Positions 14,252-42,708 of a DNA stretch of 55,807 nt are shown here, in pieces (the first letter of the stretch is position 1; the number at the start of each line of letters is the position of its first letter). The stretch is from Gammaproteobacteria bacterium. Its GTDB lineage: Bacteria; Pseudomonadota; Gammaproteobacteria; GCA-001735895. Made by a program: the position numbers and the translations under genes. The DNA lies in contig JBNKUM010000110.1 in NCBI GenBank assembly GCA_050298595.1, positions 1 to 55,807 on the forward strand. The letters run 5' to 3'. The notes below the pieces were generated by a model. The model ran no database searches, had not been told where the DNA came from, and saw only the letters and a program-made list of their open reading frames with translations.

Positions 14252-15820
14252 ATGACTGAAAACGCAACACCAGAACGCGCAAAAAAAAGACGTGGAGGGA
14301 GAGCTGACAGAATAGCCCGTGCCAGCAATAACGCCGCAACCATCGTACCTTATATTACGCGCAAAATTCCTTACACTGAAGTACTGGATGAAGAAGGTCT
14401 ACAACTGATAGAAGCCAATGCCGAAACCATACTCAATGAGACAGGCATAGAGTTTCGCGATGATCCAGAAGCCTTACAGATCTGGAAAGATGCTGGCGCT
14501 GATGTTCAGGGAGAAAGAGTGCGCTTCCCTAAGGGTTTATGTCGCTCAATTATTCAGGCCTCAGCCCCGGCTGAGTATACCCAGCACGCCAGAAATCCAG
14601 CCCGCAACGTTCAGATTGGTGGCAAAAATACAGTCTTTGTACCCGCATACGGCAGCCCTTTTGTTTATGACATCGATCAGGGACGACGCTATGCCAAGTT
14701 AGAAGATTTCCAGAACTTTATTAAACTCGCTTACTCTTCACCAAGCATGCACCTTTCAGGTGGCACCATTTGTGAACCCGTAGACCTGCCTGTGAATAAA
14801 CGTCATTTCGATATGATTTACTCACACATGAAGTATTCTGACAAATGCTTTATGGGATCTGTTACCGCGCCAGAACGAGCGGAAGACACCGTTGAAATGT
14901 GCAAAATACTGTTTGGTGACAACTACCTTGACCCTGTATCCGGTAGACCAAAAACTATCACCACCAGCCTGATCAATGCCAATTCTCCACTAACCTTTGA
15001 TGCCACAATGCTAGGCGCTGCCAAGGTTTATGCGCGCAACAATCAGGCCTGTATCATTACACCTTTTATCCTTGCGGGTGCCATGTCACCGGTTACCGTG
15101 GCGGGTACCGCCGCCCAGACTCTGGCAGAGGCTATGGCGGGTATGGCATTTGTACAACTGGTTAACCCGGGAGCACCGGTTATTTTCGGCAGCTTTGCCA
15201 GCTCGATCTCCATGCAATCCGGTGCACCTACCTTCGGCACTCCAGAGCCCGCTCTGGTACTATATGTAATGGCCGCACTGGCCAGACGACTTGGCGTTCC
15301 TTTCCGTTCCGGCGGTAGCCTGTGTGGCTCAAAACTACCCGATGCTCAGGCTGCCAGTGAATCTGCCAACACCCTCATTCCAACTGTCATGGCTGGCGTT
15401 AACTTTGTGCTGCACTCTGCCGGCTGGATGGAAGGCGGACTTAGTATGGGCTATGAAAAATTCGTCATGGATACAGACCAGACCAACATGATGGAAATAG
15501 TGCTAAAAGGCGTCGACCTGAGTGAAAACGGGCAGGCGATGGACGCAATTCGTGAGGTGGGTCCGGGTAATCACTTTCTGGGCTGCTCGCATACCCAGGC
15601 TAACTTTAAAACCGCTTTTTACCGCTCACCAGTGACTGACAATAACAGTTTTGAACAATGGACTGCAGATGGTGGTCTTGATCAGGCCCAACGAGCGAAT
15701 GCGCTGTGGAAGAAAACCCTGCAGGCCTATCAGGCGCCAGAACTGGATCCTGCCATCGATGAAGCACTACTTGCCTATATACAACAGCGCAAAGCATCGT
15801 TTCCAGACTCCAACGTATAA
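14252..15820 (+). CDS. Trimethylamine methyltransferase family (MttB superfamily, non-pyrrolysine, MtgB-like)
   Basis: NANSPL, PFILAGAMSPVT, SGAPTFGTPE, EVGPGNHFL motifs; no in-frame amber codon. Confidence 0.92.
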   Translation: MTENATPERAKKRRGGRADRIARASNNAATIVPYITRKIPYTEVLDEEGLQLIEANAETILNETGIEFRDDPEALQIWKDAGADVQGERVRFPKGLCRSIIQASAPAEYTQHARNPARNVQIGGKNTVFVPAYGSPFVYDIDQGRRYAKLEDFQNFIKLAYSSPSMHLSGGTICEPVDLPVNKRHFDMIYSHMKYSDKCFMGSVTAPERAEDTVEMCKILFGDNYLDPVSGRPKTITTSLINANSPLTFDATMLGAAKVYARNNQACIITPFILAGAMSPVTVAGTAAQTLAEAMAGMAFVQLVNPGAPVIFGSFASSISMQSGAPTFGTPEPALVLYVMAALARRLGVPFRSGGSLCGSKLPDAQAASESANTLIPTVMAGVNFVLHSAGWMEGGLSMGYEKFVMDTDQTNMMEIVLKGVDLSENGQAMDAIREVGPGNHFLGCSHTQANFKTAFYRSPVTDNNSFEQWTADGGLDQAQRANALWKKTLQAYQAPELDPAIDEALLAYIQQRKASFPDSNV

Positions 15821-17479: not shown

Positions 17480-20400
17480 TTAATACCGCGCGCCAATTCC
17501 AATCAGCCAGGCATCAACATTGACTCCTGAAAAACGATAGCTCTGCCAGCCCAGACGTATAAACACTTCGCTACGCGGGGAATACTCCAACGCCAACCCC
17601 AGATGAGTGTTTACGCCATCATCCTCAAATTTTTTGTTGATGTTTGTACCACTCAGACTGTAGTCTGCCTCCCACAGAAAAGCACCCAATGTCAGCGACC
17701 CGGTTAACTGCTCGTTCAGCGCTTTGCTCAATACTAAATCCGTAGTCCAGCCAGAGGCCGTCACCGGGTATACCGCTGCGAGTGTATTCACGAATGTGTC
17801 TACATCTGGGGCTACACCCGAAACAGTCGTCGTTACGTTTCCCAAATCCACGTATCCAATCTCCAACGCCAGCTGTTCATATAACTGGTAACCGATAAAG
17901 GGTGACCAGCCATTACGACTCAAATCAGTTTGGCTTACGGAGGCCGTTAACGATAATGCATCTATCTCCGCCTGAAAGTCACTACTACGTTCATCACTTT
18001 TTACTTTTAACAAAGCAAGTCCCAGATAATCGGGTTTCAGAAATGACTCAGCCTGCGCGCTGGTGACAAACCCTGATAAGCACAGGAGCATAAGCAGCCT
18101 ACTCCTGCCAACATAGCGATAAGCAAAGGCAAATGCCAGTAACGCTAGCCATGCGCCCGACAGCGCACCGCTACCATTAATGGTGACCTCGACCGGTGTT
18201 GCCGTCTTTACCGCTACGCCACCGGGATCATCCACTGATTGATTTACCTCGCCATCCGTATCATTCGGGCCACCATCTTCAATAGTCAGTTGCACACACC
18301 AGTGACCTTCGGTCAGTCCATTGGTGTAGCTGGAATCCCCAGGGGGAGGACAGAAGCCTTCAGTCCCTGACGCAGAAGCTACACTATTGTTGGCATCGAT
18401 AACAAAATTCTGCCAACCCGTGGGCATCAACTTGCGATATACCGCATCTGCAGGTATAGCAGCAAACTGTGCCAGCACTATGCGTACCTGTTGGCCTGCA
18501 ACAGGCAACTCATTAACATTGAAGTCAAATAGCCCTCCTGAGTAACTATAGCTTTCATCTAGCCCAGCTCCAGTACCGTTGTTGGCATGCTCCTCGATCT
18601 CTTCTTCAGTTACAGCCGTTTTGGCTCCGTTCGCGCGGAATGCAACCTGTCCCAATGATAATGCCAATCCAGGTTCGGTCTCCATGAGGAACTGATCAGT
18701 TACACTTCTTTGCTCCTGAACAACGTTACGATGCACACCCATATGATCCAGGTAATCAGGTATGCCATCACTATCACTATCACCGGCCCCTTCATCATCA
18801 TCATTGCTGCCATCACCATCGGTATCAGATGCGGTTAGCGTGGGTATAGCTGCAATGACATTTAGCCGCAGCGCTGCGCGCCTGGTATCAGTACCATCAC
18901 TCACTACTACATCCATCTTGTACACGCCTGGTGTTAAAACTGAAGGATCGAACGTAAAGGTGCTTGCACCTGAATCAGTATCAATCAGTGAGTTATCGGT
19001 ACCAGACCAGTCATAGGTATGGCTATCGCCATTAGAATCTACAACTGTCGCAGTGACAATCACATTGCCATCACCCTGACCAATCATGCGCGTATTACCG
19101 CTACCCTGATCAGCAGTTAAAGAGACCAGCGGCACAACATTAACCTCACGTATTTCAATCGTATGCGTTGCTACTGGTCCTGCTATCGCATTAGTCGGCG
19201 ACCCCATGCTAAGCAGCAGTGTTTCAACTCCCTCGCCTGCCCCATCATCCACCACATTCACAGTCACCGATGCTTCGAGGTTGGAGGCTGTTATGTCGAC
19301 ACTGCCATTGACTAGATTATGATCTGAACCATCTGTCGCCGCAGTCCCCCCCACCGTATATGGAACCGTAACAGGGTAAGTTACTGCCGGTCCGTTGAGA
19401 ATGACTTTGAATGTAACGGTATCACCTTCTCGTGCAGTCTGGTTTTTACTAAATTCGACCATTGGTGTTACGTTCACGGTTTGTATTGCTGAAGCAGAAT
19501 TGGATGCAGCATCCGTAGCTGTCCAGGTGAGCACATGAACGCCCGGACTAAAGTAGCCTGGATTGCTAGTTAGAGCTTTTGCAGTACCACTATTACTAAC
19601 GATCTGAGTTACGCGTGGAGTTAGTGGACCATCTTTATAGTCCTCTGCAGTAACCAAACCGGTCGTTACAGCTGTAAACAGACCTGTGGCATTGACGTTC
19701 ACATCGCCAGGCACAGTGACTACGGGTGGCTGGTCATCAGCATTGGCATTTGAATTGGCTTCTGACTCATCATAATTGAGAACGCCGTCACCATCGAGGT
19801 CAGTATCTCTATCTGACGCGTCCAGTTTGTTGAGACCATTAGCGTCTTCATAACTATTGAGCATGCCATCACCATCGATATCAGTGTCACTGGCATCCCC
19901 TGTTCCATCGCCGTCCAGATCACCATCGATCACTCCGCTACTGCTACTGCTCACAGATTCAGAGAAACCCTGACCGTCCACGTAACTGGCGACAACTGAA
20001 ATCAAGCCCCCTACGTCCGACGCTATCAATGTATAGGTACTTGACGTTGCACCGCTGATATTGCTCGCACCACGCTGCCATTGATAGCTGACCGAACCCA
20101 GGCCATCAATATCCGCCAGCGTATTGCTAGCCGTTAAGGTGTAACCCTCTACCTCTGTACCCGTAAAACTCACACTACCAGTTGGCGAATCATTGACATT
20201 AGCAACGGTTGCTGTGGCACTACTGGTAACACTTTCTGCCGTGCCGTGATTATCCGTATAACTAGCTGTCACGGTGATACTTTGCCCAACATCACTATCA
20301 CCCAGAACATAGGTGCTACTAGTTGCGCCACTGACCGCTGAACCACCACGCAACCATTGATAGGTAATGGTACCAAGCCCATCCGCATCGGCCAGTGTAT

Positions 20401-23400
20401 TGATAGCTGTCAGTGTTTGATCTTCGGTCACCGTGCCACTGATGGTCACACTACCGGTAGGAGCATCATTCACATTGACAACAGCGCTGGTTGCACTGCT
20501 AGTTGAACTCTCAGCTGTACCCTGCGCATCGGTATAACTGGCGGTAACGGTGATGGATTGCCCAACGTCGTTATCACCCAAAACATAAGTGCTGTTGGTC
20601 GCGCCAGTAATATCAGTACCAGCTCGCTGCCATTGATAAGTAATCGTACCAAGCCCATCCGCATCTGCCAGGGTATTAGCAGCAGTTAGTGTTTGATCTT
20701 CGGTGGCTGTGCCACTGATTGTGACACTACCTGTAGGTGCGTCATTCACATTAACAACAGCACTGGTTGCACTGCTGGTTGAGCTTTCAGCCGTACCAAA
20801 ACCATCGGTGTAACTTGCGGTAACCGTTATGGTTTGACCAACGTCGTTATCACCCAGGGTATAAGTGCTATTGGTGGCAGAGCCAATATTCGTACCACCA
20901 CGTTTCCACTGATAACTAATGGAGCCTAAACCATCGGCATCGGTCAGTGTATTACTTGCGGTCAGGGTTTGATCTTCAGTAGCCGTGCCGCTGATGGTCA
21001 CACTACCGCCAGGTAAGTCATTGACATTCATTACCACTGTTGAGGCTGTGCTAAGCACACTCTCTGCATTACCATTGCCATCGGTGTAGCTTACGGTCAC
21101 CGTCATGGTGTTTCCTATATCCGTTGCCGTCAGGGCGTAACTCGCACTGTTACTACCGACATTCGAAGCTGCAGATTTCCACTGATAGCTAAAGCTTCCC
21201 AGGCCATCAGGATCAGCCAATGCAGTCGTTACTGCCGTTAAGGTTTGATACTCAAGCGGACTACCACTAATGGTAACTGACCCTGTTGGCGAGTCGTTAG
21301 TTTCGGTAATAGCAACGGTTGTGCTTCCTGTCGCTGTTAACGCGCCGCCACTGCCCTGGCTACCGCTGTTGCCATCGTTAAACGTCCAGTCAATTTGAGT
21401 CGTACTTGCTGGTGAATTATTGCTATTACTGTAAGCAATGCTCTGCAACACGCTATCTACATTGGCAGCAGTTGCACTGGCATTAAAGGTAACAAGCAAT
21501 GTGCCAGCACTGTTGGTGGTAACGGTTCCAATATCTGCGCCTCCCAGATTGAAAGCGCCGCCTTCGATCAGCGCACTTAAACTACCACTAGCGCTAAACT
21601 GATCGTAACTGCTTGCGCCACCATTACGAACGAGGGTTAAGGTTGCAGCACTGTAATTATCAGTATCATCCAGTTCGGCATCAGCAACAACAACATTGCT
21701 ATCCAGGACTACCGCTGCTCCATCTTCTGTAAAGGCAGGTGTACCATCCAGACCACTAAAAACGGGTTGATCATTGGTTGCTGTAACACTAATGGTTGAG
21801 GTTGATTCAACGCCTGTATTATCAGCATTATCCACTGCAACAAAGGTAACCGAACGATTCGTTGTATCGGGTGCACTGGAAGTATTGTTATATCGGGTCG
21901 AAGCGATCAGTTGTTGCATGGTCGCTGCACTTGCAGAACCATCATCTACTGTGATCGTCAATACTCCAGTACCACCATCATAGGCAGCAATAGTAACAGC
22001 TTCACTGTTAACTGTTTGTCCACCTGTACCCAGGGTTGAGGCCAGGCTTTCAGCCGTAGTATCAGGCCTGTTGGATAAAGTCACTGTCAGCGATTTAAAC
22101 GTGCCATCATCGGAGATTGTATTATCGCTATCTGCAACAGCGACTGCACCGCCATCTTCAGTAAAACTACCGTTGTATCCACCGCTAGTATTGCCACTAC
22201 TGTCATCACCATCCAGGTCGATTATTGGTGCGCGTACTAAACTCACCGTAACATCCTGATTGGCTGATATAGCACTTGCGCCATCGCCATCGTTTGCAGT
22301 GACACGAACCGTTTTCGCAGCTGTGCTAGTTGTTGAAGCATTTGTATTGGTATATTGCAACGCTGAAAGCAGATCCTGAACGCGTGCCAATGTGGCGTTA
22401 ACATTGAGGGTAATCACTAAACTCGTGCCCCCAGTCCCCCCTGCCGCAGTGCCAATTGTAAAACCATCGCTGTGCGTTATGTTACTGCCTGAGGTAGCAA
22501 TATTACCAACCGCACCAACCTGCAATACATCCTCTGCTGACTGCTGATTGGCAACTATGCTGACGGTAATATTGCCACCATTGAAATCGGCAGAATCACC
22601 ATCTGTTAGAGAAGCATCTGCAGCATCATCCAGAACAGTTGCTCCCCCCCCAATGTTAAAGCTCACTGCATCGCCGTCCAGATTCGTAATAACAGGCGCT
22701 TCGTTAACATTATTTACCGTCACCGCTAATACTGTATCAGTTGTATTGCCTCCCGCGTCAGTCACTCGAACCGTAATATTGTGACTACTATTGGCTTCGT
22801 AGTTCAGCAAGCTACCGTCGGCAACGGTCACTATGCCTGTACCTGAAGCAATGGCAAAACGTCCGCCAGCATCGTCGAACAAGCTATAGCTAGTGGCATC
22901 AGAAGCTGAAACGGTGCCCACTGTTGTACCGTTGGATACATTTTCATCTACGACTAACGTACCGCTCGCTGAGCCAGGGCTGTTGGCATCAATACTATCT
23001 GCACCTTGAACAATCGCCGTCGTATAAGTCGTACTATTATTGCCGGCACTGTCCTGTAAGATAAATGAAACAGGAATGCTGTCACCTGCTGCGCGGTCGG
23101 TATTTCCTTCAGCTACTGTGTAGGTTGCACTGTAGCTACCACTGCCACCATCGGTAAAACCGGTGACAGCAACATCATTGATGGTGCCGCTATTTAAGCT
23201 AAGCCCGGCTTCACTGGCCGTAATGCTTACCGTTACAGCATCACCCACTTTCATAGCACTGTTGGGAATGCTCACTGTACTGATAGCAGGCCTGTTTGCA
23301 TCAATGCTATCGGCGTTTTGTGTGATCGCTGTGGTGTAGGTGCTACTGATGTTGCCCGCTGCATCCTGTAGAACAAAAGACACCGGAATAGAGTCACCGA

Positions 23401-26400
23401 CAGCACGATCTGTATTCCCTTCGACAATGGTATAGGTGGCACTATAACTGCCGCCACCATCATCGCTAAACCCAGAAACAGCAACGCCATTTACACTACC
23501 ACTCGACAAACTTAAGCCAGCTTCACTTGCGGTAATACTCACCGTCACAGCATCACCAATTTTCATAGCAGTATTTGGAATGCTCACACTGCTAATAGTG
23601 GGTACATTTGCATCTATACTATCCGCTCCCTGACTAATCGCCGTGGTGTACGCTGCACTATCGTTTCCTGCAGCATCTGCCAGAACAAAATTCACAGGGA
23701 TAGGACTTCCCGCTGCAATATCAGTACCACCATCGAGAACTGTGTAGGTTGCACTATAGTTACCGCTGCCGAGGTCCGAGAAAGCAGTAACCACTACACC
23801 GTTAACCGTTCCTGTTGTAAGCGAGAGCCCAGCTTCACCCGCAGTAATACTTACAGTGACAGCATCACCTACTTTCATGGGGCTGTTAGGAACTGTGACA
23901 CTGGAAATGGTCGGCACCACGCTATCCACCAACACTGACGTTAAACTGCCCACCGAATTGAGCGTTGTGGAGAGGTCATTCGTCACTGCATCTTTCATCG
24001 TGCCAGAGTTCAGAGAAATGCTCCCCCCCAGCGCAATGCCATCACTATCTATCAACCCGCTTTCAACGGTATAACGGAAAAGCAGTGCAGTTGTGCCGGA
24101 TCCACTCACGTAGCTGGCGGTTTTACCGGTAGCGCCAATCGTTAACGCCAAGGTTGGTGTGCCGCCGCTCGTTACTACCGTCACCGCTTCTGAGGTGTTC
24201 ACCGTAAAATCGAGATTCTGCCCTGCCACATAGGTTGCGTTTGAGGGAACAGAAACACTGGCAACCGTCGGTGCCGTACTATCCACTAATACAGACGTTA
24301 GGCTGCCCACCGAATTAAGCGTGGTGGTGAGGTTATTCCCTACTGCATCTTTCATCGTACCTGAGTTCAATGCGATAGATGCACCTAACGCAATACCGTC
24401 GGTATCGCTTAACGCGTTTTCAACGGTATAGCGGAAAAGCAGTGCAGTTGTACCCGATCCACTCACGTAGCTGGCAGTTTTGCCTGTAGCGCCAATCGTT
24501 AACGCCAAGGTTGGCGTGCCACCACTCGTCACCACCGTAACCGCTTCCGAGGTATTAACCGTAAAGTCAAGATTCTGCCCTGCTACATAAGTAGCATTTG
24601 ACGGCACAGAAACACTGGAGACGGTCGGTGCTGTGCTATCCACTAATACTGAAGTTAACCCACCTACTGAATTAAGTGTTGTGGTTAAATTGCTACCACC
24701 AGAATCCTTCATAGTGCCGGAATTCAGGGAAATACTTCCCCCCAGCGTTATACCGTTGGTATCGCTTAACCCACTTTCAACGTTATATCGGAACAGTAGT
24801 GCCGTTGTGCCTGACCCACTTACATAGCTGGCGGCTTTACTGGTGGCACCAATCGTTAGCGCAAGCGTTGGTGTTCCGCCAGAAGTAACCACGGTTACCG
24901 CTTCTGAGGTATTAACGGTAAAATCGAGATTCTCTCCTGTCACATAGGTAGCATTTGACGGAACAGAGACACTGGAAACCGTAGGCACTACGGGATTGGC
25001 TGTAATCTGCGTTGTCGCATTTGCTGTGCCATCGATGGTGCCATCATTTGGCGTAAGGGTAAACGTCGAAACAACAGGTGAAGAGGACTGATTATTCGTG
25101 GGTGTAAACGTAAGCCCTTGCAGGTTAGTGGTAGCTTCTGCAGGTGCCACAGATGTCACCGTATAGCTACCAGCACTCCCCGTTATGCCTGTACCAGTTA
25201 ATGTGCCATTCGCACCGGTATAGGTAATAGATACACTGACATTGTCAGCATCTGAATCTGATACCGTAACACTGCTAAATGGCGATATGGTTGCATTATC
25301 ATTTACTACACCAGCAGTGGTGAAGCTACCACCTAAGGTTGGAGCCGTATTGGACGTCAGCTTGTTATCAACGGTAAAATTATTCAGTCGTATAGGCCAA
25401 TAAACCTTTTGATCACAACCAGAAGCTGAAACCCTAAACTTAGTAAGCTGCTCTCCCGCCAGATTCGTTAAAGCTACAGAACCAGCCCCAATTAAGGTAA
25501 AACTATCTGACTGAGTGCCTCCTGCCGCCAGATATCCAATCACATTTGCCGTTGAGCAAGAGGCACCATTCTTAGCTGAAAAGTTAACGGCTGTCAGCTG
25601 GAACGATGCGATATTAGTGCCATCAGCTGAAAATTGTAAAAACCCTGCTGTAGCAGTAGTTGCATAGTCTAAATAAAGTCCGGAGTCGGCATAGGTTCCA
25701 GCATAAGCATAGACAATGTGTGAACCATCAAACACAATGTGCCCATCACTTGATGTGTGCGAAGCCGATGCAGTAAAACAGCCTGAACTACAAAAATCCG
25801 AAGGAATATAGGTAGTTGGCGCTAACACATCAGAAAAGTCTTTAAGCGCGATTTCACTCCAGGGTAAAGATGCCTCTATATTGCCGCGTTTAATTTCCAG
25901 ATCCCAATCGCCCTCTTTTGAGCCCGCACCTGTAAAATCATCCGAAGCAGCAACATCGGCATGGGTATTGCCAACAATAATTTCAAGTAGCTCCTCCCCC
26001 GCTCTGTCGGCCGCCAAATTACAACCGTACAGTAATATATCCCCACCGGGTTTAACCGATTTATTAATCTGGCTAAAGGCCTGTATGTTCCCCTCCAAAG
26101 ATTGCGCATCAATTTGGCTATTCCCCAACAATAACGTACCTTCCTTCGCATGGGATACAATATGCAGAGCACTGAGAGAACGATAGCTTTCCAGAGTAGT
26201 TAAAAGTTGCTCCAGGCCATCATTATTACCGTCTAATTCAACAACATCCGTACCTGGCTTTAACAGTTGATAAAATAAGTGTTTGTTAGGCACTGAGGCA
26301 TCAATGAGAATCAATTCCGTAATCGGATGTTTTTTCTCCAGGCATAGGTCATGAGATGTACTGGAATCTGGAGGCATCCGATACAGTTCCGATTCAGGCG

Positions 26401-26542
26401 GCCCAGGGATAACAGCGCATTTCTGATTTGTAGTAGGCGAAGCGTGTTTTCGACCTACATATCCTGAGTATGATCCTATCGCCCCATAACTTCCAAAGGG
26501 TAAAACTAATGCAGCTAAACAACCTAAGTTCTTTTTTTTCAT
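17480..26542 (-). CDS. Giant surface protein: signal peptide, DUF4347-like domain, Ig/cadherin-like repeats, Ca-binding DxDxDG repeats, GlyGly-CTERM-like segment, C-terminal outer-membrane beta-barrel
   Basis: 3020-aa ORF with LHIVSH..ILLYGC..DWDLE, three repeat families, DGGPNDTDG..DDPGG, GSGALSGAWLALL and terminal IGIGARY. Confidence 0.88.
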   Translation of the reverse strand: MKKKNLGCLAALVLPFGSYGAIGSYSGYVGRKHASPTTNQKCAVIPGPPESELYRMPPDSSTSHDLCLEKKHPITELILIDASVPNKHLFYQLLKPGTDVVELDGNNDGLEQLLTTLESYRSLSALHIVSHAKEGTLLLGNSQIDAQSLEGNIQAFSQINKSVKPGGDILLYGCNLAADRAGEELLEIIVGNTHADVAASDDFTGAGSKEGDWDLEIKRGNIEASLPWSEIALKDFSDVLAPTTYIPSDFCSSGCFTASASHTSSDGHIVFDGSHIVYAYAGTYADSGLYLDYATTATAGFLQFSADGTNIASFQLTAVNFSAKNGASCSTANVIGYLAAGGTQSDSFTLIGAGSVALTNLAGEQLTKFRVSASGCDQKVYWPIRLNNFTVDNKLTSNTAPTLGGSFTTAGVVNDNATISPFSSVTVSDSDADNVSVSITYTGANGTLTGTGITGSAGSYTVTSVAPAEATTNLQGLTFTPTNNQSSSPVVSTFTLTPNDGTIDGTANATTQITANPVVPTVSSVSVPSNATYVTGENLDFTVNTSEAVTVVTSGGTPTLALTIGATSKAASYVSGSGTTALLFRYNVESGLSDTNGITLGGSISLNSGTMKDSGGSNLTTTLNSVGGLTSVLVDSTAPTVSSVSVPSNATYVAGQNLDFTVNTSEAVTVVTSGGTPTLALTIGATGKTASYVSGSGTTALLFRYTVENALSDTDGIALGASIALNSGTMKDAVGNNLTTTLNSVGSLTSVLVDSTAPTVASVSVPSNATYVAGQNLDFTVNTSEAVTVVTSGGTPTLALTIGATGKTASYVSGSGTTALLFRYTVESGLIDSDGIALGGSISLNSGTMKDAVTNDLSTTLNSVGSLTSVLVDSVVPTISSVTVPNSPMKVGDAVTVSITAGEAGLSLTTGTVNGVVVTAFSDLGSGNYSATYTVLDGGTDIAAGSPIPVNFVLADAAGNDSAAYTTAISQGADSIDANVPTISSVSIPNTAMKIGDAVTVSITASEAGLSLSSGSVNGVAVSGFSDDGGGSYSATYTIVEGNTDRAVGDSIPVSFVLQDAAGNISSTYTTAITQNADSIDANRPAISTVSIPNSAMKVGDAVTVSITASEAGLSLNSGTINDVAVTGFTDGGSGSYSATYTVAEGNTDRAAGDSIPVSFILQDSAGNNSTTYTTAIVQGADSIDANSPGSASGTLVVDENVSNGTTVGTVSASDATSYSLFDDAGGRFAIASGTGIVTVADGSLLNYEANSSHNITVRVTDAGGNTTDTVLAVTVNNVNEAPVITNLDGDAVSFNIGGGATVLDDAADASLTDGDSADFNGGNITVSIVANQQSAEDVLQVGAVGNIATSGSNITHSDGFTIGTAAGGTGGTSLVITLNVNATLARVQDLLSALQYTNTNASTTSTAAKTVRVTANDGDGASAISANQDVTVSLVRAPIIDLDGDDSSGNTSGGYNGSFTEDGGAVAVADSDNTISDDGTFKSLTVTLSNRPDTTAESLASTLGTGGQTVNSEAVTIAAYDGGTGVLTITVDDGSASAATMQQLIASTRYNNTSSAPDTTNRSVTFVAVDNADNTGVESTSTISVTATNDQPVFSGLDGTPAFTEDGAAVVLDSNVVVADAELDDTDNYSAATLTLVRNGGASSYDQFSASGSLSALIEGGAFNLGGADIGTVTTNSAGTLLVTFNASATAANVDSVLQSIAYSNSNNSPASTTQIDWTFNDGNSGSQGSGGALTATGSTTVAITETNDSPTGSVTISGSPLEYQTLTAVTTALADPDGLGSFSYQWKSAASNVGSNSASYALTATDIGNTMTVTVSYTDGNGNAESVLSTASTVVMNVNDLPGGSVTISGTATEDQTLTASNTLTDADGLGSISYQWKRGGTNIGSATNSTYTLGDNDVGQTITVTASYTDGFGTAESSTSSATSAVVNVNDAPTGSVTISGTATEDQTLTAANTLADADGLGTITYQWQRAGTDITGATNSTYVLGDNDVGQSITVTASYTDAQGTAESSTSSATSAVVNVNDAPTGSVTISGTVTEDQTLTAINTLADADGLGTITYQWLRGGSAVSGATSSTYVLGDSDVGQSITVTASYTDNHGTAESVTSSATATVANVNDSPTGSVSFTGTEVEGYTLTASNTLADIDGLGSVSYQWQRGASNISGATSSTYTLIASDVGGLISVVASYVDGQGFSESVSSSSSGVIDGDLDGDGTGDASDTDIDGDGMLNSYEDANGLNKLDASDRDTDLDGDGVLNYDESEANSNANADDQPPVVTVPGDVNVNATGLFTAVTTGLVTAEDYKDGPLTPRVTQIVSNSGTAKALTSNPGYFSPGVHVLTWTATDAASNSASAIQTVNVTPMVEFSKNQTAREGDTVTFKVILNGPAVTYPVTVPYTVGGTAATDGSDHNLVNGSVDITASNLEASVTVNVVDDGAGEGVETLLLSMGSPTNAIAGPVATHTIEIREVNVVPLVSLTADQGSGNTRMIGQGDGNVIVTATVVDSNGDSHTYDWSGTDNSLIDTDSGASTFTFDPSVLTPGVYKMDVVVSDGTDTRRAALRLNVIAAIPTLTASDTDGDGSNDDDEGAGDSDSDGIPDYLDHMGVHRNVVQEQRSVTDQFLMETEPGLALSLGQVAFRANGAKTAVTEEEIEEHANNGTGAGLDESYSYSGGLFDFNVNELPVAGQQVRIVLAQFAAIPADAVYRKLMPTGWQNFVIDANNSVASASGTEGFCPPPGDSSYTNGLTEGHWCVQLTIEDGGPNDTDGEVNQSVDDPGGVAVKTATPVEVTINGSGALSGAWLALLAFAFAYRYVGRSRLLMLLCLSGFVTSAQAESFLKPDYLGLALLKVKSDERSSDFQAEIDALSLTASVSQTDLSRNGWSPFIGYQLYEQLALEIGYVDLGNVTTTVSGVAPDVDTFVNTLAAVYPVTASGWTTDLVLSKALNEQLTGSLTLGAFLWEADYSLSGTNINKKFEDDGVNTHLGLALEYSPRSEVFIRLGWQSYRFSGVNVDAWLIGIGARY
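19919..21298 (-). repeat. Five intragenic 92-aa (276-bp) Ig-like repeats
   Basis: NDxPTGSVTISG.. units starting at 21298, 21022, 20746, 20470 and 20194. Confidence 0.85.
22979..23914 (-). repeat. Three intragenic 104-aa (312-bp) repeats
   Basis: PxISxVxxPNxxMKxGDAVTVSITA units. Confidence 0.85.
23915..24985 (-). repeat. Three intragenic 119-aa (357-bp) repeats
   Basis: PTVxSVSVPSNATYV..NLDFTVNTSEAV units, nearly identical in protein but synonymously diverged in DNA. Confidence 0.88.
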
Positions 26543-26620
26543 CCTGGCGTCCCTAAATCATATTTTTAGCTGCCTGCGACATGCAGTCTGGATTAGATAA
26601 ACTAAAACAAACAAAACAGG

Positions 26621-27442
26621 CTAATCAGTCTTCGAAGAGATAATACTCGCCTCCGTCCCAGAACCATCCATCCAAAACGCCATCTCGCTATACTTGCTAA
26701 ATAGATCTGGCGGCAAAACCGTCCTTCTAGAACTAAATTCCACTTTTTTCTTTACTGTATGTAATCCGTTAACACCCAACTTACTGTCAAATTCACTTTC
26801 TGAGTATTCAACACAATTAAAGTCATGGTTATATTCAGGCTCACCTATAAAGTCATATAACAAGCCTATCGACTTCTTTGGATATTTGGTGAGCAGGTCA
26901 TAATCTATAAGCAATAACCGATCTGAATACTCGCCGTAGTAAGCTTCCTTCAAGGCTGTCCACGCGCTACCAACACTACCGGCAGAGTTCATCAATGCCT
27001 CACAGCGGCTATACACCGTCATGCGACTTGCAGGGTTAAACATGCGACTGTAGTCAAATGGGTTCTTTCGGTAGATGCACTCAAAACTATCCATAATCCA
27101 AGACGGATTCCTGACACAACAAATCACTTTAAAGCCATCAAATAGCTCGACCAACTGATGTAATCTTGCTGTCCAAATTCGATTTGTATCAAAAACAATC
27201 TCTTTAGCACCCTTGTCGTGGTAATAGCTTTCAAAAAGTCCTTTACTCAAATGCCTACGCCCAGCGTCATTAAAAAAAGTATAGTACTCCCCTCCTGCTC
27301 CAATCTGTTCCAGACAGCCGTTAAGTAATGCAGCCACTGGACTGGAGATGGCAGCATGAAACCGTGGATTCTGTCTCAATAGACCTGCAAGTAGTGTCGA
27401 GCCAGATCTAGGTAGCCCCGAGATAAAATGAATTTTTTGCAT
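26621..27442 (-). CDS. Sulfotransferase family protein
   Basis: 5'-PSB loop ISGLPRSGSTLL; 3'-PB motif CCVRNP..IMDS. Confidence 0.9.
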   Translation of the reverse strand: MQKIHFISGLPRSGSTLLAGLLRQNPRFHAAISSPVAALLNGCLEQIGAGGEYYTFFNDAGRRHLSKGLFESYYHDKGAKEIVFDTNRIWTARLHQLVELFDGFKVICCVRNPSWIMDSFECIYRKNPFDYSRMFNPASRMTVYSRCEALMNSAGSVGSAWTALKEAYYGEYSDRLLLIDYDLLTKYPKKSIGLLYDFIGEPEYNHDFNCVEYSESEFDSKLGVNGLHTVKKKVEFSSRRTVLPPDLFSKYSEMAFWMDGSGTEASIISSKTD

Positions 27443-27480
27443 TAATCCTCACTGGCTAATAAGTTGTTTATAATTTAACT

Positions 27481-28269
27481 GGGGCAGAGTAAATTTAAAC
27501 AGCGCGGCTCTTCCGCCACCCCTTGCGTCTTCCAACTTTGAGTGTTTTTTGTCTCCTACCGGTTAGCTTCCCTATCTCTTCTATAAAGCTCTCATTTCCA
27601 ATCGCCATGCCTTTATTAGAACCTTTCCTGATCTCTTCCAACACCGGGTCATCTACCTGATGTACAACTTGTGACCGATAGTTTTCCTTGCCAAGCTCCT
27701 TTGTTCTTCCCCGCTGAAGGTATTCGGAATGGGGGATACATAACTCAGACTCTTTTTCCAATGCAACGCATTGATCTGATAACCTGGCCAGATCTAATCA
27801 GCAGGATCATCCACCATATCCGCTCTGACCGGGTTGAGTTCGATATAGCGGTAAACTTAAAGTAGATATCGTTCAGTTTGAACCAAACGGATTTATAGCA
27901 ACCGTACCAGAGTGTACCTATGCGTCTATTCTGATAGTTAAAAATGCGGACATACTTACGCCCCAATGACTGCATCATTTCACTGATTCCGCCGTTTTGT
28001 CGTGGCGTACACAGTAAATGCACATAACTAGAAATCAGTACCCAGGCGTGAACATCTACATTATATTTCGCTGGATAGCCTTTTAACCACCCCATAAAAG
28101 CCATCAGATCCTCTTCTGGGCCAAAACAAACCTGGTGATAATCACCTCTCTGGATTATATGGATAGGAACTCTGACTGGTGCACCCATCTGTATTTTGGG
28201 CATATTTTGATCCTTCCTTGTTGTTTCTGTGAGAATTAGAGTTTAGCACATCAAATTTTACTCCACCCC
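27481..28269 (-). pseudogene. Frameshifted REP-associated tyrosine transposase (RAYT) with terminal inverted repeats
   Basis: HIIQRG, VHAWVLISSYVHLL (HUH decayed), GTLW..YKS, split into 27745..28203 and 27495..27761. Ends GGGGCAGAGTAAATT / AATTTTACTCCACCCC. Confidence 0.85.
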
Positions 28270-28527
28270 TAAATGTGCTCCTGCTAAGTTAAACTTCGAA
28301 CAAATTAAATATATAGCATCTGGAACAGCAACTTTCTACAAATCATTCAGGTAATTAACCGGGGTAATAATATAGAGCGACAAAAATAATATACACTTAG
28401 ACAATTTAAACCAAAAACATTTACAGGATATTAGAGGCAAACCCGTGCCTGGAATTTAGAGGGGTATATCCGACGATAAGCATTCAATTTATAAGTCTTA
28501 TAGCAATTAATTACACGGAGCGATATT

Positions 28528-29040
28528 ATGCAAAAAATAGATTTACCTGACGGCCTTGGCCTGAGGCTTTCCACAGCCAACGACAACGCGTTTATTTCAT
28601 CTCTGTTTCACACCACCCGGGAGCACTTTTTCCTCGCCGAACAGGAAGCTGAATACATTCAAGAAGTTATTGATAAACAACTCGAGCTTCAAACAACTGG
28701 ATACGGTGCACAATCGCCAAATTCAATAACCTTTATCGTCGAAAAACAAGGTACTGCAATTGGACGTCTTATACTGGATTTTGGAAAAAATATCGCTCAC
28801 ATTATAGATATTGCTTTAATAAAAGAAGCCAGAAACAAAGGATATGGAAAATCCATTATCCAGGCGGTTCAATACACAGCTACCAAACAATCGCTCCCCG
28901 TCGGTTTAACCGTGGCCAAGCAAGATAGCGCAGCAGCTGCGTTATATCAAAAGCTCGGCTTCATAGCAGAAGAAAGTAATGAGACGCATAGCTTTATGAT
29001 GTGGTACCCACCTGCACAAAAAACCTATATTAACGCCTAG
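28528..29040 (+). CDS. GNAT N-acetyltransferase (tail-collar-cluster type)
   Basis: IDIALIKEARNKGYG and AAALYQKLGF motifs. Confidence 0.88.
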   Translation: MQKIDLPDGLGLRLSTANDNAFISSLFHTTREHFFLAEQEAEYIQEVIDKQLELQTTGYGAQSPNSITFIVEKQGTAIGRLILDFGKNIAHIIDIALIKEARNKGYGKSIIQAVQYTATKQSLPVGLTVAKQDSAAAALYQKLGFIAEESNETHSFMMWYPPAQKTYINA

Positions 29041-29051
29041 CCTTCACTTAA

Positions 29052-29075
29052 AAAGGGGCAGCATCCCGCCCCTTT
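29052..29075. terminator. Hairpin terminator between convergent genes
   Basis: AAAGGGGC-N8-GCCCCTTT. Confidence 0.6.
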
Positions 29076-29117
29076 AAAAACATCATATACGACTCACACC
29101 CGATATATGGTCAACAT

Positions 29118-29747
29118 CTAGTTTCGAGTGGGGAAAAGACCCTGAATTGCAATACTAAAGTTAATTGCTATAACCGGATTCATGATACTAAAAGACTGCC
29201 CCTCCCCTGTATCACCCACCTGGACAGTTCCACCTGAAGCCCCTCCACCCGAGACCCCTCCCAGTGAAACCAAAGACCCTGGCGTCGGACCACTCTTGTA
29301 GATATTTTCCGGATGGTCCTGAGGACCACCAGTAGCCTTAGTTTGCGAAAGGTATGCACCCGGTGACGGTGTAGATGCATCCCCTTCTTCAGTAGTCGCC
29401 TCAAGCTGAGCCGGTCCACCCTCCCCTTCAGCTGTAAACGTTGCGGAGTGGTTATGCAAGGGCATCTCAAAAACTTGTAGCGAGTGATGTTGACTTCCCA
29501 TCATTGTCCCAGGAGGATATGCCTGCAACCCTTGAGAATCCCCCATATTGAACCCCATGGGTAATCTGGAAGTCAGGTTTGGCAAGCCAAATGTTGTACG
29601 CCCATCACCTCCATACTGCGTAGCCAACAGCGCAAACAGTGCCTGGTTTTCAGCTATCGGCATCAACTGACCAGCACAAAAAGTAAAGCCCCGTGGAGAG
29701 AAAGAAAACCCCAGCATTTTTATTTCACCTAGAAACGGTTCCGACAT
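29118..29747 (-). CDS. Phage tail-collar domain protein (microcystin-dependent protein, MdpB-like)
   Basis: EPFLGEI..GQL....NQALFALL..YGGDGRTTFGLPNL, MPxHxH, NFSIAxxGxFPxRN. Confidence 0.9.
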   Translation of the reverse strand: MSEPFLGEIKMLGFSFSPRGFTFCAGQLMPIAENQALFALLATQYGGDGRTTFGLPNLTSRLPMGFNMGDSQGLQAYPPGTMMGSQHHSLQVFEMPLHNHSATFTAEGEGGPAQLEATTEEGDASTPSPGAYLSQTKATGGPQDHPENIYKSGPTPGSLVSLGGVSGGGASGGTVQVGDTGEGQSFSIMNPVIAINFSIAIQGLFPTRN

Positions 29748-29833
29748 ATTGATCTCCTATACTATATAAATTAAGTTATTAACTTACCACTATCCAACCA
29801 TCAGCTTTATATCCATAAAGCTCAATTAACACA

Positions 29834-30148
29834 TCACAATTCATTACCTGCCGAACCACTATGTTTGGCTATGGTTATCGCTGACTCATAATCCACTGTA
29901 CTCAGCGGAGAGAGATACAAACTTCTTTCCCCCGCCGTCTCATGACGAAATAAGTATGTTCCCGGAGTTAAGGTAAAATCACTTTCGCTATTCTTGAAAT
30001 GAATAGAAAAAGCGCTCCACCTATCATCATCAGGTTGTGCTTTTTTCACGTCGGTAATAGACAGTACTCCTGTATTTCCCTCGCTATCCACCACCTCCAC
30101 TTGATCCCCCACCAGTTTTGTAAACTGATCATATTTGTAATCTTTCAC
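29834..30148 (-). CDS. Small DUF6916-like protein
   Basis: 104 aa; FSIHF..LTPGTYLFRH..LYLSP..YES pattern; lies between two tail-collar genes. Confidence 0.7.
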   Translation of the reverse strand: MKDYKYDQFTKLVGDQVEVVDSEGNTGVLSITDVKKAQPDDDRWSAFSIHFKNSESDFTLTPGTYLFRHETAGERSLYLSPLSTVDYESAITIAKHSGSAGNEL

Positions 30149-30240
30149 TTTCTACTTTCTCCAATCTAAACTCTACTATCAGTGCCCCAATAAGCGCATA
30201 CAAGAAACGGCGAAGCTTCCTTCCCAGCCCTTTCTCAAAA

Positions 30241-30876
30241 CTAATTACGTGATGGATATATACCTAGAAGTGCAATACTGAAGTTCAACGCAACAACAGG
30301 GTTTAATATTGCAAAAGACTGCCTCCCTCCATTATTATCAACGGTAACACTCCCTCCACTTCCGCCACCTCCTGAAACGCCTCCCAACGTCACTAACGAG
30401 CCTGGGGTGGGATTACTTTTGTAGATATTTTCCGGTTGGTCCTGCGGTCCACCGGTGGACTTGGTTTGAGACAGATACATTCCTTCGCCTGGTGTAGAAG
30501 CCTCCCCCTCCTCTGTCGTGGCCTCAAGCTTGGCGCTACCTCCACCTCCCGAAGAGGTAAATGTTGCGGGGTGATTGTGCCTTGGCATTTCAGGAGTGGT
30601 TAACGTATGGATCTGATTCCCTACCATAAACCCTATCGGATAGCTTTGAAAATCTGGCGGATTCGGGGTCCCCATACTACACCCCATTGGCATTCGGGAT
30701 GTTAAATTTGGCAACCCGAAGGTAACTCTTCCATCACCACCGTAATTGGTACCAAGCAAAGAGAATAACGCATCATTTTCTGATACAGTTACAAATTGTC
30801 CTGCGCAAAAAGTCCATTGCTGCGGTGCATACGTAAACCCAAAAGTCCTAATTTCACCAATAAACGGTTCTGACAT
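30241..30876 (-). CDS. Phage tail-collar domain protein (MdpB-like), paralog 2
   Basis: ATG at 30876 after GGAGGT; same motifs as 29118..29747, including the shared LEATTEEG..GGPQD.PENIYKS insert. Confidence 0.9.
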   Translation of the reverse strand: MSEPFIGEIRTFGFTYAPQQWTFCAGQFVTVSENDALFSLLGTNYGGDGRVTFGLPNLTSRMPMGCSMGTPNPPDFQSYPIGFMVGNQIHTLTTPEMPRHNHPATFTSSGGGGSAKLEATTEEGEASTPGEGMYLSQTKSTGGPQDQPENIYKSNPTPGSLVTLGGVSGGGGSGGSVTVDNNGGRQSFAILNPVVALNFSIALLGIYPSRN

Positions 30877-31206: not shown

Positions 31207-31458
31207 TTAACTATAGATATTGTTTAGTTTGAACCAAACAGAATTTATAGCGACCACCACAGAGTGGCCTATGCGTCGATATTGATAGTTAAAATAGTGG
31301 ACATACTTGCTCCCTAATGACTGCATCATTTCACTGATTCCGCCGTTTTGTCGCGGCGTACACAGTAAATGCACATGATTAGACATCACTACCCAGGCGC
31401 GAACATCTACATTATATGGATAGGAACATCGACCAGTGCCCCTCCGAATTCTGGACAT
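31207..31458 (-). pseudogene. Second RAYT fragment
   Basis: VRAWVVMSNHVHLLCTPRQNGGISEMMQSLG; DNA closely matches 27875-28070. Confidence 0.85.
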
Positions 31459-31878
31459 ATATTATCCTTACTTGTTGTTTAGGTGAGAATTAAAGTTTAG
31501 CACTTTATAATATTTCTCTGCTCCCTTTTAGCACCTGTTAAGTTCAACCTAAAGTCAGTTAAACGTATAGCATCTGGAAAAGCACCTTTCAACAAATCAT
31601 TCAAATTAATTAACTGGGACCAGAGTAGAATGGCACTTACTTAATGACCATATTTTCTTATCAACTCCCTGGTTTTATTCTGAATCACTCGCGGTACGCA
31701 TGTGTCATCCATCAGATAGATTTAGTTTTTGCATTCCTCCTCCTATGCATAAATTGGCACTACACAGTGCTTACATATTCCCCTGGTCGAACTTCAATTG
31801 TCTCAATTACATCTAACGCCTGCTGTAAAGAATTAGCCAGGAGAAATATCAGGCGAATACAGTCCGAGATGCAGGCAT

Positions 31879-31916: not shown

Positions 31917-33356
31917 TTAATCCAACGACCATGGTGACTTTGGCGATTTACCAATATTAATGATACCAATCTGATTCCCCATACGGGTCTGTACTGCTGG
32001 TGAAATCATATCCCTGGAGAAAAGCATAATATTTAACGATCCACCAAAGAAGAAGTTACCAAACTTGGTTTTTCCTTTGGTGACTTTTTTACCAACTTCA
32101 AAACAGTTAACACCATCTGTTTTTCTATGTTTGTCATTACATTGATTTAGAACCACAGAACTTACAGAATCCAGACCTACCGGAATCGATGCTACATAAC
32201 CTGTCTTAGTTGATTTTTTCTTTTCATCGGTTGATAAACGATCATCATATGTCACTTTTATGATAATAACACCACGCTGAAATGCCTGAAATTGACTAAA
32301 GTCAGTACCTGGTCGACCAACGTTGCCATCACCTGGAACCCAGTTAGGAAAGTCCAGATAACCAAAAGTGCCTGGTGTACCAGGTGTACCTGTTTTCACA
32401 ACCTCAGCATGTATCACTATGCCATCAACAGGTGAGTGGAAATGATGATAGGTATTCGGCATTAATACACAGGTCAGGCCATTACCTCCGACAAACTTCT
32501 GCTTAATATCATCAGGAACAGTGCCCAGCATATCATTCACAGATATAGGAATATTTTTAACATCCAGAACAGTATCAAGCTGAAGTGGATTTTCGACATA
32601 ACGACGTTCATAGGTCTCATTAAATTTAACAAGCTGTACTAACGGATTCATGATGCAGTCTGTTGGTGAAACAATGACATAATCATGCTCAGGAAATGTT
32701 ACAGGGCGACTGGGATAGTTACCTTGTTTGTCACTCTGTAGATTGCGTGCGAAAAACTCATTCCAGTTTTTATACTCTTTGGCTGTTTTCTTTCTGTAAT
32801 CCCCAATCTCAATCCGAGGATCTTTAATCCACTCCTTCACATATTTATATGATGCAGAACTGTTCATAAAGCCAAGATATTCATCACTCCATTTTTTCAG
32901 GAAAACTGTACCTGTCTTCAACATTTCAGAAGGTTTGGAAGGGTTACGCCCCTGTACAAAATCCTGCCCCGCAGGATTTTGATAGTAAAACCATGCAAAG
33001 TAGAGAATGGGGTCTAATGCATTATCAGAGTCGCCTTTAATCTGTGGTAATGCGGTGCACCATGTTTTAAACATTTTGTGCATCATCTGCATCAAGCCTT
33101 CACCACTACCCGCTGACTTCCATGGATTTACTCTGGACCTGTTATAGGAATAACCTTGTGGGAGATCAACCAGACCATCATAAACCTTATCATAGGCATC
33201 TCTGGTAACTGAGTCGAGTTTGTATTGTGATTTGAGATATTTTAACGAGTCATAGCATGGAGATTGCTCAGCCATGATCTGGGTTGAAAACAAGAGTAAC
33301 GCAGTACCAGTTACCCAATAAATAGAACGCTGAAAAAACGTTTTTATTGTAAACAT
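31917..33356 (-). CDS. Phosphatidylserine decarboxylase-family (pyruvoyl) protein with signal peptide
   Basis: WNEFFAR, VSPTD, YHHFHSPVDG and FFFGGS cleavage motif; N-terminal Sec-type signal. Confidence 0.82.
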   Translation of the reverse strand: MFTIKTFFQRSIYWVTGTALLLFSTQIMAEQSPCYDSLKYLKSQYKLDSVTRDAYDKVYDGLVDLPQGYSYNRSRVNPWKSAGSGEGLMQMMHKMFKTWCTALPQIKGDSDNALDPILYFAWFYYQNPAGQDFVQGRNPSKPSEMLKTGTVFLKKWSDEYLGFMNSSASYKYVKEWIKDPRIEIGDYRKKTAKEYKNWNEFFARNLQSDKQGNYPSRPVTFPEHDYVIVSPTDCIMNPLVQLVKFNETYERRYVENPLQLDTVLDVKNIPISVNDMLGTVPDDIKQKFVGGNGLTCVLMPNTYHHFHSPVDGIVIHAEVVKTGTPGTPGTFGYLDFPNWVPGDGNVGRPGTDFSQFQAFQRGVIIIKVTYDDRLSTDEKKKSTKTGYVASIPVGLDSVSSVVLNQCNDKHRKTDGVNCFEVGKKVTKGKTKFGNFFFGGSLNIMLFSRDMISPAVQTRMGNQIGIINIGKSPKSPWSLD

Positions 33357-38689: not shown

Positions 38690-38778
38690 AAAATAAATAA
38701 ACCGGTTGTTGAGGCCAAAATCAGTTGCTTATAATGGCGATTTTTTACCCGCTACAATCAAAGAGGATCAGTAAGGTC

Positions 38779-41343: not shown

Positions 41344-41673
41344 TTTTGAACGGCAGCGTGACACAGAAAGTAGAATCCAGGTCAGATAGATAAGCTTAAT
41401 ACCGCGAGCAACGGGGCTACTGGGATACGCCCCGTGAAGTCAAACTACTGGCATCTTCAGTGAGACAGTGTCGCGTTCATGAGAACGCGATGACTACGAG
41501 TTTCGCCGTGTGATCCATCTGAGTGAAAGAAGCATCGAAAAACACGGGCAGGCATTACTCATCCTTGAAATTGAACTGGAAGGCCGGTGGATAGTCTGCC
41601 TGGAATACGAGCTACTCGTATGTTACGGATTCAGGTAAGCGCCAATCTTTTTGGGACACCCAATCTTTTTGCT

Positions 41674-42600: not shown

Positions 42601-42708
42601 AGTGGTAATACCCTGAAATAAATCAAGGTTTTATAACGCCATTCTTCATAGTCTGAGCTGCCAGCTATGAGATTTCAACCACTCACAATGACTCGTGCTA
42701 CAACTCTA

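Follow-up and report, generated by a model that had tools for sequence, protein, structure and literature searches.

The region from 17,480 to 30,876 of a 55,807-nt contig of a gammaproteobacterium (contig JBNKUM010000110.1 of assembly GCA_050298595.1, Gammaproteobacteria bacterium, GCA-001735895; the whole contig is referred to here as the window) encodes two short proteins with a phage tail-collar domain (collars A and B), a DUF6916 protein, a GNAT acetyltransferase, a sulfotransferase and a giant protein of 3020 aa headed by a DUF4347 domain. We found that the collar, GNAT and DUF6916 genes represent a widespread non-phage cassette in a local version with two collars, and that the sulfotransferase and the giant protein form a fixed pair to which this cassette is a recurrent but optional addition. 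According to the explanation that we favor, to which we give about an even chance of being correct, the collars would constitute a phage-derived, trimeric, ligand-binding head that is matured by GNAT and DUF6916 and that serves as an optional specificity module together with a sulfated, giant outer-membrane adhesin with a CPD-like domain.

Bacterial tail-collar (MdpB/RhiB) proteins have been on record since the description of the rhi operon, and the parts of the literature accessible to us assign them no function. The accessible texts on the phage tail collar domain, the microcystin-dependent protein and DUF4347, supplements not included, contain no description of the cassette. The collars are shown here to be part of a conserved cellular cassette that is repeatedly located beside giant proteins with differing secretion and anchoring signals; if collars give giant adhesins their ligand specificity, this would represent a general, phage-derived way of recognizing surfaces, hosts or kin. 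New in this work are the pairing of sulfotransferase and giant protein, the predicted caspase/CPD-like nature of DUF4347, the duplication behind the two collars and a correlation between GNAT and the collar N-terminus. The window thereby provides three handles, i.e., a pair found both with and without collars, the predicted peptidase-like domain, and the collar N-terminus as a putative GNAT target.

Tail-collar proteins in a cellular cassette

Collar A (209 aa; 29118-29747, minus strand; PF07484, E = 7.3e-22) and collar B (211 aa; 30241-30876, minus strand; PF07484, E = 3.3e-22) scored 77.5 and 78.6 bits, respectively, against a PF07484 gathering cut-off of 24. Both proteins begin with MSEPF directly at the collar domain and have no shaft and no signal peptide (for collar B this start is the ATG at 30876; the list of open reading frames (ORFs) also offers a longer TTG start at 30894). 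As an earlier, first-pass annotation of this DNA had proposed, the N-termini are thus free of signal peptides, being the start of the conserved domain itself, and both paralogues carry an H-N-H motif, located at residues 98-100 in collar A and 100-102 in collar B. The histidines of this HxH motif (H98 and H100) were invariant in alignments of 20 and of 12 sequences. Entropy across 177 collars separated a conserved scaffold (residues 1-100 and 181-209; 0.5-2.0 bits) from a variable head (residues 101-180; 2.3-3.1 bits, with indels).

In the PDB, a collar profile matched long and short tail fibres of phages (8kec, E = 4e-10; T4 gp12, E = 1.8e-7). The HxH motif of T4 gp12 and gp37 holds a metal ion on the trimer axis. 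The window collars resemble these fibre tips in having a collar domain recognizable by sequence, an invariant HxH motif and a conserved scaffold with a variable head, whereas they differ from them in the lack of a shaft or baseplate-attachment part and in their location in cellular loci with GNAT, DUF6916 and giant proteins. We infer that the collars would form trimers around an HxH-held metal ion, like the T4 tips, and that the variable head may bind a carbohydrate-like ligand.

The match to PF07484, along with matches of the collars to PHROG tail families, could also be taken to indicate a decayed prophage tail-fibre remnant, but this explanation is effectively refuted and we find it hardly credible. 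A Pfam scan of 34 of the 37 window ORFs with at least 150 aa (three shadow ORFs overlapping longer ones were excluded) detected no phage families other than the collar domain in the 55.8-kb window, in agreement with the first-pass statement that no other phage genes are nearby. Among 50,697 phage records, no match covered at least 80% of collar A; the matches that were found span only its N-terminal 49-69%, with E values of 3e-13 or weaker, so that the closest homologues in intact prophages, which the first-pass annotation had regarded as potential evidence against a cellular system, were not observed in these records. Moreover, GNAT, DUF6916 and the giants are cellular partners that are conserved across phyla.

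DUF6916 (PF21880) is rare in the class (10 of 400 genomes) and was found in 5 of 61 relatives, four of these being among the 13 other genomes of the same genus (these tallies include the unpublished genomes G075 and G177). Collars were present in all 10 class genomes with DUF6916, as compared to 37 of the 400 genomes overall. Among 12 loci anchored on DUF6916, nine contained collars and eight contained a homologue of the window GNAT, while DUF6916 occurred without collars or GNAT in three (L032, L033 and L035); GNAT homologues adjoining both collars and DUF6916 showed 25-43% identity to the window GNAT.

Searching species-representative genomes with a collar alignment yielded a set of 79 collar-anchored loci, and these loci, which represent Pseudomonadota, Bacteroidota, Chloroflexota, Planctomycetota, Acidobacteriota, Myxococcota, Actinomycetota, Bacillota and other phyla, were searched with hidden Markov models (HMMs) built from Pfam-confirmed members. 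A GNAT of the same, cassette-specific subfamily was present in 31 loci, DUF6916 in 23 and both in 21, bearing out the first-pass suggestion that this neighbourhood recurs in non-phage bacterial loci. GNAT and DUF6916 are mostly encoded next to each other, their genes being no more than 150 nt apart, and often overlapping, in 18 of 21 and in 7 of 9 loci. The 79 loci carried one (37 loci), two (16 loci), three (22 loci), five (1 locus) or six collars (3 loci).

An ORF of giant size (i.e., at least 800 aa, or at least 500 aa if truncated by the contig end) directly adjoined the cassette in 34 of the 79 loci and was co-oriented with it in 31. Overall, 55 of 711 genes in the same loci (7.7%) represented giants, predicting approx. 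15% for two neighbours; the observed excess corresponds to a binomial P of 1.7e-9, a value that overstates the evidence, as the loci are related to each other. The ORF calls on which this census relied, as well as four of its five HMMs, were self-made and crude. Among 28 giant neighbours scanned against Pfam, 20 carried surface-repeat or anchoring domains (Big_x, Cadherin, Calx-beta, HYR, SprB, DUF11, FG-GAP), five had no match at 1e-7, and the remaining three were a TPR/GT41 protein, PriA and a caspase-domain protein. The anchoring domains of these neighbours differed by group, with type IX secretion system (T9SS) sorting domains in Bacteroidota, SLH in Paenibacillus and DUF4347 in Gammaproteobacteria.

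As collars A and B are 67% identical and are sisters on the tree (FastTree support 0.997), the window pair represents a recent, lineage-specific duplication rather than part of an ancient three-paralogue triad; the two proteins fall within a group of lineage-specific duplicates, outside the three paralogue classes. Collars that adjoin DUF4347 giants formed one clade (FastTree support 0.909), which comprises the two window collars, the G143 locus (L031), two Photobacterium loci (two collars each), Marinomonas (two collars) and a Pseudomonadales metagenome-assembled genome.

The sulfotransferase and the giant protein

The giant gene (17480-26542, minus strand) encodes a protein with Pfam matches to DUF4347 (E = 7e-47), Cadherin (1.8e-8), Calx-beta (6.6e-7) and OmpA_membrane (1.5e-8). 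Based on Pfam and NCBIfam, a signal-peptide-like N-terminus is followed by DUF4347 (residues 77-240), Ig, cadherin and Calx-beta repeats and a choice-of-anchor U domain; the C-terminal part consists of a hydrophobic helix with basic residues from approx. residue 2790, a second signal-like stretch and an OmpA-like beta-barrel (residues 2869-3000). This C-terminal arrangement is kept in the giant of genome G143 (L031:726-1940), which shows 39% identity.

An AlphaFold2 model of the DUF4347 region (residues 61-260; 25763-26362) reached a pLDDT of 90.6. Its best Foldseek matches were Tce1 (9qpe_G, E = 1.1e-4), the SAVED-CHAT protease (E = 2.5e-4) and caspase-3/6, and the five matches at E = 1e-3 or better (Foldseek probability 0.99-1.00) were Tce1, two chains of SAVED-CHAT and two caspase-3 entries. 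His131 and Cys174 of the giant (H71 and C114 in alignment A4) were invariant in 33 sequences. We predict from the model that DUF4347 adopts a caspase/CHAT/CPD-like (clan CD) cysteine-peptidase fold with an invariant His-Cys pair. DUF4347 occurs in 48 of the 400 class genomes, nearly always at the head of very large proteins; a second DUF4347 protein, without an adjacent collar, is encoded elsewhere in the genome studied here.

The sulfotransferase gene (26621-27442, minus strand; 273 aa; Sulfotransfer_3, E = 1.2e-12) lies 78 nt upstream of the giant gene. The protein, of the 3'-phosphoadenosine 5'-phosphosulfate (PAPS) type, scored 49 bits with Sulfotransfer_3 and 43.5 bits with Sulfotransfer_1, and contains P-R-S-G-S-T at residues 11-16, which we take to be the N-terminal 5'-phosphosulfate-binding loop of PAPS-dependent sulfotransferases. 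Within the class sample its only close homologues, found in G332 (69% identity) and G269 (63%), are each located directly upstream of a DUF4347 gene. The family has at least 7,208 matches, the best 120 of which are all at least 68% identical. Among 23 metagenome loci with this sulfotransferase, a DUF4347 ORF was found directly downstream in 19; in two of the four exceptions hardly any sequence is available downstream, and the other two are distant homologues (43-45% identity). Collars were present just upstream of the sulfotransferase in 11 of the 23 loci. In Photobacterium, the order is collar-collar-sulfotransferase-giant, and the sulfotransferase is 65-69% identical to that of the window.

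Because DUF4347 follows the sulfotransferase in 19 of 23 metagenome loci while collars are present in 11 and are missing from G269 and G332, we conclude that the sulfotransferase and the giant are a fixed pair and the collar cassette a recurrent but optional addition to it. The first-pass annotation had grouped the sulfotransferase with the collar system, and in this respect has to be revised, as the enzyme tracks the giant, including in the collar-less genomes. Of the co-occurrence that it had anticipated for the whole neighbourhood, the part concerning collars, GNAT, DUF6916 and giants was found, while the sulfotransferase goes with the giant and most DUF4347 giants are without collars.

We suggest that the substrate of the sulfotransferase would be the giant, or else a glycan that it carries. 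Another possible target is the tyrosine of a D-x-x-E-x-I-Y-K motif in the collar head, which would be sulfated in a manner similar to RaxST or TPST; we consider this quite unlikely. The motif was present in all six collars of three sulfotransferase-linked genome loci (window, L036 and L037) and absent from six collars of relatives without the sulfotransferase, and D-x-x-E-x-I-Y-R was found in three further sulfotransferase-linked metagenome loci. However, the motif is restricted to one clade and is missing from the collars of seven other sulfotransferase-linked loci, and the sulfotransferase-giant pair also occurs in genomes without collars. Furthermore, the sole match to a tyrosine sulfotransferase, in the loop region of TPST2, was not significant (E = 0.15); a search of the sulfotransferase against the PDB gave no significant match.

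The window also contains RAYT (IS200-like Y1 transposase) sequences. The first-pass annotation had counted a single RAYT remnant, but two were found, i.e., remnant 1 (27495-28203, minus strand; Y1_Tnp, E = 6.1e-5), which is broken into two overlapping frames (27745-28203 and 27495-27761), and remnant 2 (31207-31458, minus strand; 83 aa; Y1_Tnp, E = 2.2e-7). A repeat search identified them as direct repeats of approx. 500 nt with 75-90% identity, the copies at 27863-28364 and 31214-31618 comprising the RAYT pseudogenes and upstream sequence and being 3.25-3.35 kb apart. These repeats exactly bracket the block formed by GNAT, collar A, DUF6916 and collar B, and recombination between them could delete this block. 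Such an arrangement, with the GNAT on the opposite strand, could be taken to indicate that the cassette and the pair were brought together by chance in a variable island through RAYT-associated rearrangement. We regard this as very unlikely, since Photobacterium, Marinomonas, G143, G204 and 11 of 23 metagenome loci show the same joining with no RAYT present, and since it follows one collar clade.

Several of these observations nevertheless weigh against a common system of collars and giant. Co-transcription of the collars with the sulfotransferase-giant pair is doubtful, because a RAYT remnant and the oppositely oriented GNAT gene separate them. Furthermore, 28 of 29 foreign DUF4347 loci had no collar within approx. 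1.5 kb; DUF4347 and collars occur together in 11 class genomes and are adjacent in three (G000, G143 and G204). Neither G269 nor G332 has any collar genome-wide, and among 15 sulfotransferase loci with at least 2 kb of upstream sequence, seven had collars and eight had none. Many DUF4347 giants and sulfotransferase-giant pairs are without collars, and the giant therefore works without them.

GNAT, DUF6916 and the location of the collars

The GNAT gene (28528-29040, plus strand; 170 aa; Acetyltransf_1, E = 4.6e-12) encodes a protein that scored 46.7 bits with Acetyltransf_1 and contains R-N-K-G-Y-G, which we read as the acetyl-CoA motif of GNAT acetyltransferases (R/Q-x-x-G-x-G/A). Its best NCBIfam match was rimI, with 35 bits, far under the cut-off of 86.4 bits. 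An M-[S/A/T/G] start was observed for 90 of 100 collars in loci with GNAT as compared to 16 of 77 collars in loci without GNAT, a difference that is confounded by phylogeny, as the GNAT-less loci are mostly from Bacteroidota, and that to this extent speaks less strongly for a GNAT-collar relationship. This pattern would fit loss of the initiator Met followed by N-alpha-acetylation of the exposed Ser or Ala. Our specific guess is that the window GNAT may acetylate the alpha-amino group of collar Ser2 once the initiator Met has been removed. Proteins of the RimI/J/L group resemble the window GNAT in that rimI is its best match and in the proposed substrate, a Ser or Ala that becomes N-terminal when Met is removed, whereas the window protein is not a member of these families by score and its target is a proposal.

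The first-pass annotation had described the gene between the two collars (29834-30148, minus strand; 104 aa; PF21880, E = 6.4e-13) as DUF6916-like; the gene is indeed present, but the wording was too weak, as a score of 49 bits against a cut-off of 27 makes it a true PF21880 member. Its ESM Atlas neighbours were exclusively DUF6916 clusters, and a profile search found 10,392 representative clusters of the family at E = 1e-3 or better, while a single-sequence search with the window protein retrieved only the protein itself and a comparison with PHROG gave no match. Most family members have 96-106 aa and a minority carries an N-terminal extension of 40-57 aa; a search for longer fused forms found none. 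One 267-aa metagenome protein (P0183) combines GNAT and DUF6916 in one chain, but this singleton on an 868-nt contig may result from read-through or a sequencing error and was not relied on. No paper on DUF6916 was found in the literature search.

The AlphaFold2 model of the window DUF6916 protein (pLDDT 90.1) predicts a six-stranded beta-barrel. Foldseek returned nothing at E = 1e-3 or better, and the best structural match, to YcgR-N, had a Z of 8.1 (root-mean-square deviation 2.5 Å over 82 residues, 6% identity), the level usual in this comparison tool for models without a true match. The likeness to the split beta-barrels of YcgR-N/PilZ is thus offset by the low identity and the Z value, and no role in cyclic di-GMP signaling is claimed for DUF6916.

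In our favored explanation, GNAT and DUF6916 would act on the collars in the cytoplasm, and the collars would then contribute, as an optional extra, to recognition or adhesion together with the giant surface protein. For other genomes, a DUF6916 paralogue with a twin-arginine (Tat) signal may carry the folded trimer out, consistent with the presence of such signals on at least 6 of 43 DUF6916 ORFs in the loci examined. A more far-reaching version of this explanation, which we put forward tentatively and consider rather doubtful as a whole, is a modular "cellular tail fibre", in which a GNAT-acetylated, DUF6916-escorted phage head is mounted on, or released beside, a sulfated and possibly self-processing giant adhesin. 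The hypervariable, exchangeable head would then determine the specificity of the adhesin, and gain or loss of collars would re-target a constant stalk.

Export is the step at which these proposals are most exposed. A signal peptide was found on none of 177 collars, which conserve a start 3-4 residues before the domain, and the only DUF6916 protein of the window, and of the genome, has no Tat signal and no second, Tat-bearing PF21880 paralogue; with signal-less collars and no Tat-bearing DUF6916 in the genome, the collars may never reach the cell surface. The main rival explanation accordingly is that collars, GNAT and the signal-less DUF6916 stay in the cytoplasm and serve the giant from there, e.g., in its assembly, holding or quality control, or in a sensing role. 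Besides the lack of signals, it is favored by the requirement of GNAT for acetyl-CoA, a cytoplasmic substrate, and by the Bacteroidota collars, which do not have the T9SS C-terminal domain carried by the giants next to them. On the other hand, a head that is hypervariable and sits on a conserved scaffold is what a ligand binder facing outward would show, and the twin-arginine signals of DUF6916 proteins elsewhere point to export in those genomes. Overall, we judge a purely cytoplasmic role to be improbable, but to deserve more weight than the other alternatives to an optional surface specificity module considered here.

Accessory genes near collars in other genomes

A minority of collar loci encode further modifying enzymes, i.e., an Asp/Asn beta-hydroxylase (7 loci), an Fmt/ArnA-like formyltransferase (7 loci), a second type of sulfotransferase (6 loci) and an Asn-synthase-like protein (3 loci), as well as an uncharacterised protein of 415-445 aa (6 loci); none of these was found in the window. 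The formyltransferase, which represents a second N-acylating enzyme besides GNAT, is encoded directly upstream of the collars (L036, L037, L041, L045, L046, L062 and L113), and the 415-445 aa protein accompanies it in most of these loci.

In two loci, genes for a TolC-like OEP, HlyD and an M50-HlyD fusion are located between or beside the collars and the DUF4347 giant (L045, 10975-13284; L082, 536-4932); these are candidate exporters there, and nothing comparable was found in the window. In genome G001, from the same genus, the collar cassette lies inside a lasso-peptide-like gene set (L025, 4830-17338) with an ABC exporter, a transglutaminase-like protein, an Asp/Asn hydroxylase and a TPR-sulfotransferase. 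The Asn-synthase-like protein of this set had a lasso cyclase as best NCBIfam match (333 bits, below the cut-off of 525), and its radical SAM protein gave a weak, sub-threshold match to the YydG peptide-epimerase family (69 of 300 bits).

These genes raise the alternative that collars are secreted, modified agents of a lectin- or bacteriocin-like kind, exported by an ABC/HlyD-type route independently of the giant. The recurrence of the accessory enzymes (hydroxylase, formyltransferase, second sulfotransferase type and Asn-synthase-like protein) would fit with such agents, as would the HlyD, OEP and M50-HlyD genes of L045 and L082 and the ABC transporter, lasso-cyclase-like, transglutaminase-like and radical SAM genes of L025. 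The window, however, has none of these exporters or enzymes and neither a toxin domain nor an immunity gene; the accessory sets are minorities among approx. 90 loci, and the association of collars with giants is much stronger. We therefore view secretion as an independent agent as unlikely.

Comparison with characterised systems

The nearest characterised system, judging from the accessible part of its description, is the heterotrimeric tail of virophage DSLV2, whose tripartite tail proteins bind Synechococcus cells (PMC12724248). According to the same text, these tail proteins are, like the window collars, short, stand-alone PF07484 proteins encoded in tandem; they differ in being viral structural proteins encoded next to capsid genes and in comprising three distinct paralogues, whereas the window has two recent duplicates in a cellular cassette.

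Cellular tail-collar proteins of COG4675 include RhiB, from the rhiABCD operon of Rhizobium, and Microcystis MrpB, to which the portions of the reports available to us assign no function (PMC13133039, PMC6969944, PMC3328848). As far as these portions describe it, rhiD encodes an opacity/OmpA-like outer-membrane barrel (COG3637), resembling the OmpA-like barrel at the end of the window giant, whereas the rhi genes have LuxI/LuxR genes at their flanks and a nod/nif surrounding, neither of which was found in the window. A search of plasmids for rhiB yielded other collar loci, which carry the annotation "tail fiber protein". A link to Microcystis MrpC and the CT pilus was considered and dropped, as the published gene cluster lists no collar gene.

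DUF4347 is also carried by PA0256 (Tce1) of P. aeruginosa according to the part of the source available (PMC8262886), and PA0256 is described, in an equally partial view of the report, as a putative cysteine protease of the His/Cys type that aligns with the CPD of TcdB (PMC13323088). The predicted fold and the invariant His/Cys of the window giant resemble Tce1, the TcdB and MARTX CPD, caspases and CHAT proteases; Tce1, however, is a small type VI secretion system cargo, while the window domain heads a 3020-aa, outer-membrane-anchored repeat protein.

Genome context and further observations

Every gene named in the first-pass annotation was recovered at its position by the ORF list and Pfam. 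The genome, which is 98.6% complete, contains two collars and one DUF6916 in total, all of them in the window. Comparison of seven proteins with the anti-phage defence models of PADLOC gave no family at E = 1e-3 or better.

At the C-terminus of the giant (residues approx. 2660-3020; 17480-18200), the stretch behind the choice-of-anchor U domain, made up of G-S-G, a hydrophobic helix and R-S-R, resembles a GlyGly-CTERM-type sorting signal; the frame then runs into the second signal-peptide-like stretch, which ends with A-Q-A, and into the OmpA-like barrel, which has 8 strands.

Neighbours of the cassette identified by Pfam include an AraC-type regulator, a hybrid histidine kinase and a phosphatidylserine decarboxylase-like protein. 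The latter (31917-33356, minus strand; 479 aa) has a signal-peptide-like N-terminus and a phosphatidylserine-decarboxylase domain (E = 5e-17), and no homologue of it was found in any of approx. 90 related loci. The flanking genes represent MttB/corrinoid/folate one-carbon and quaternary-amine metabolism, transporters and regulators. One-carbon and methylamine genes are dense at 38725-51387 and 14252-15820, where an MttB-family methyltransferase, a corrinoid protein, a RACo activase and a pterin-binding methyltransferase are encoded along with MTHFR, formate-tetrahydrofolate ligase and a DAO/GCV_T oxidase. At the contig end (55206-55736, plus strand), a 176-aa protein shows weak matches to NodA (E = 2.3e-6) and to GNAT.

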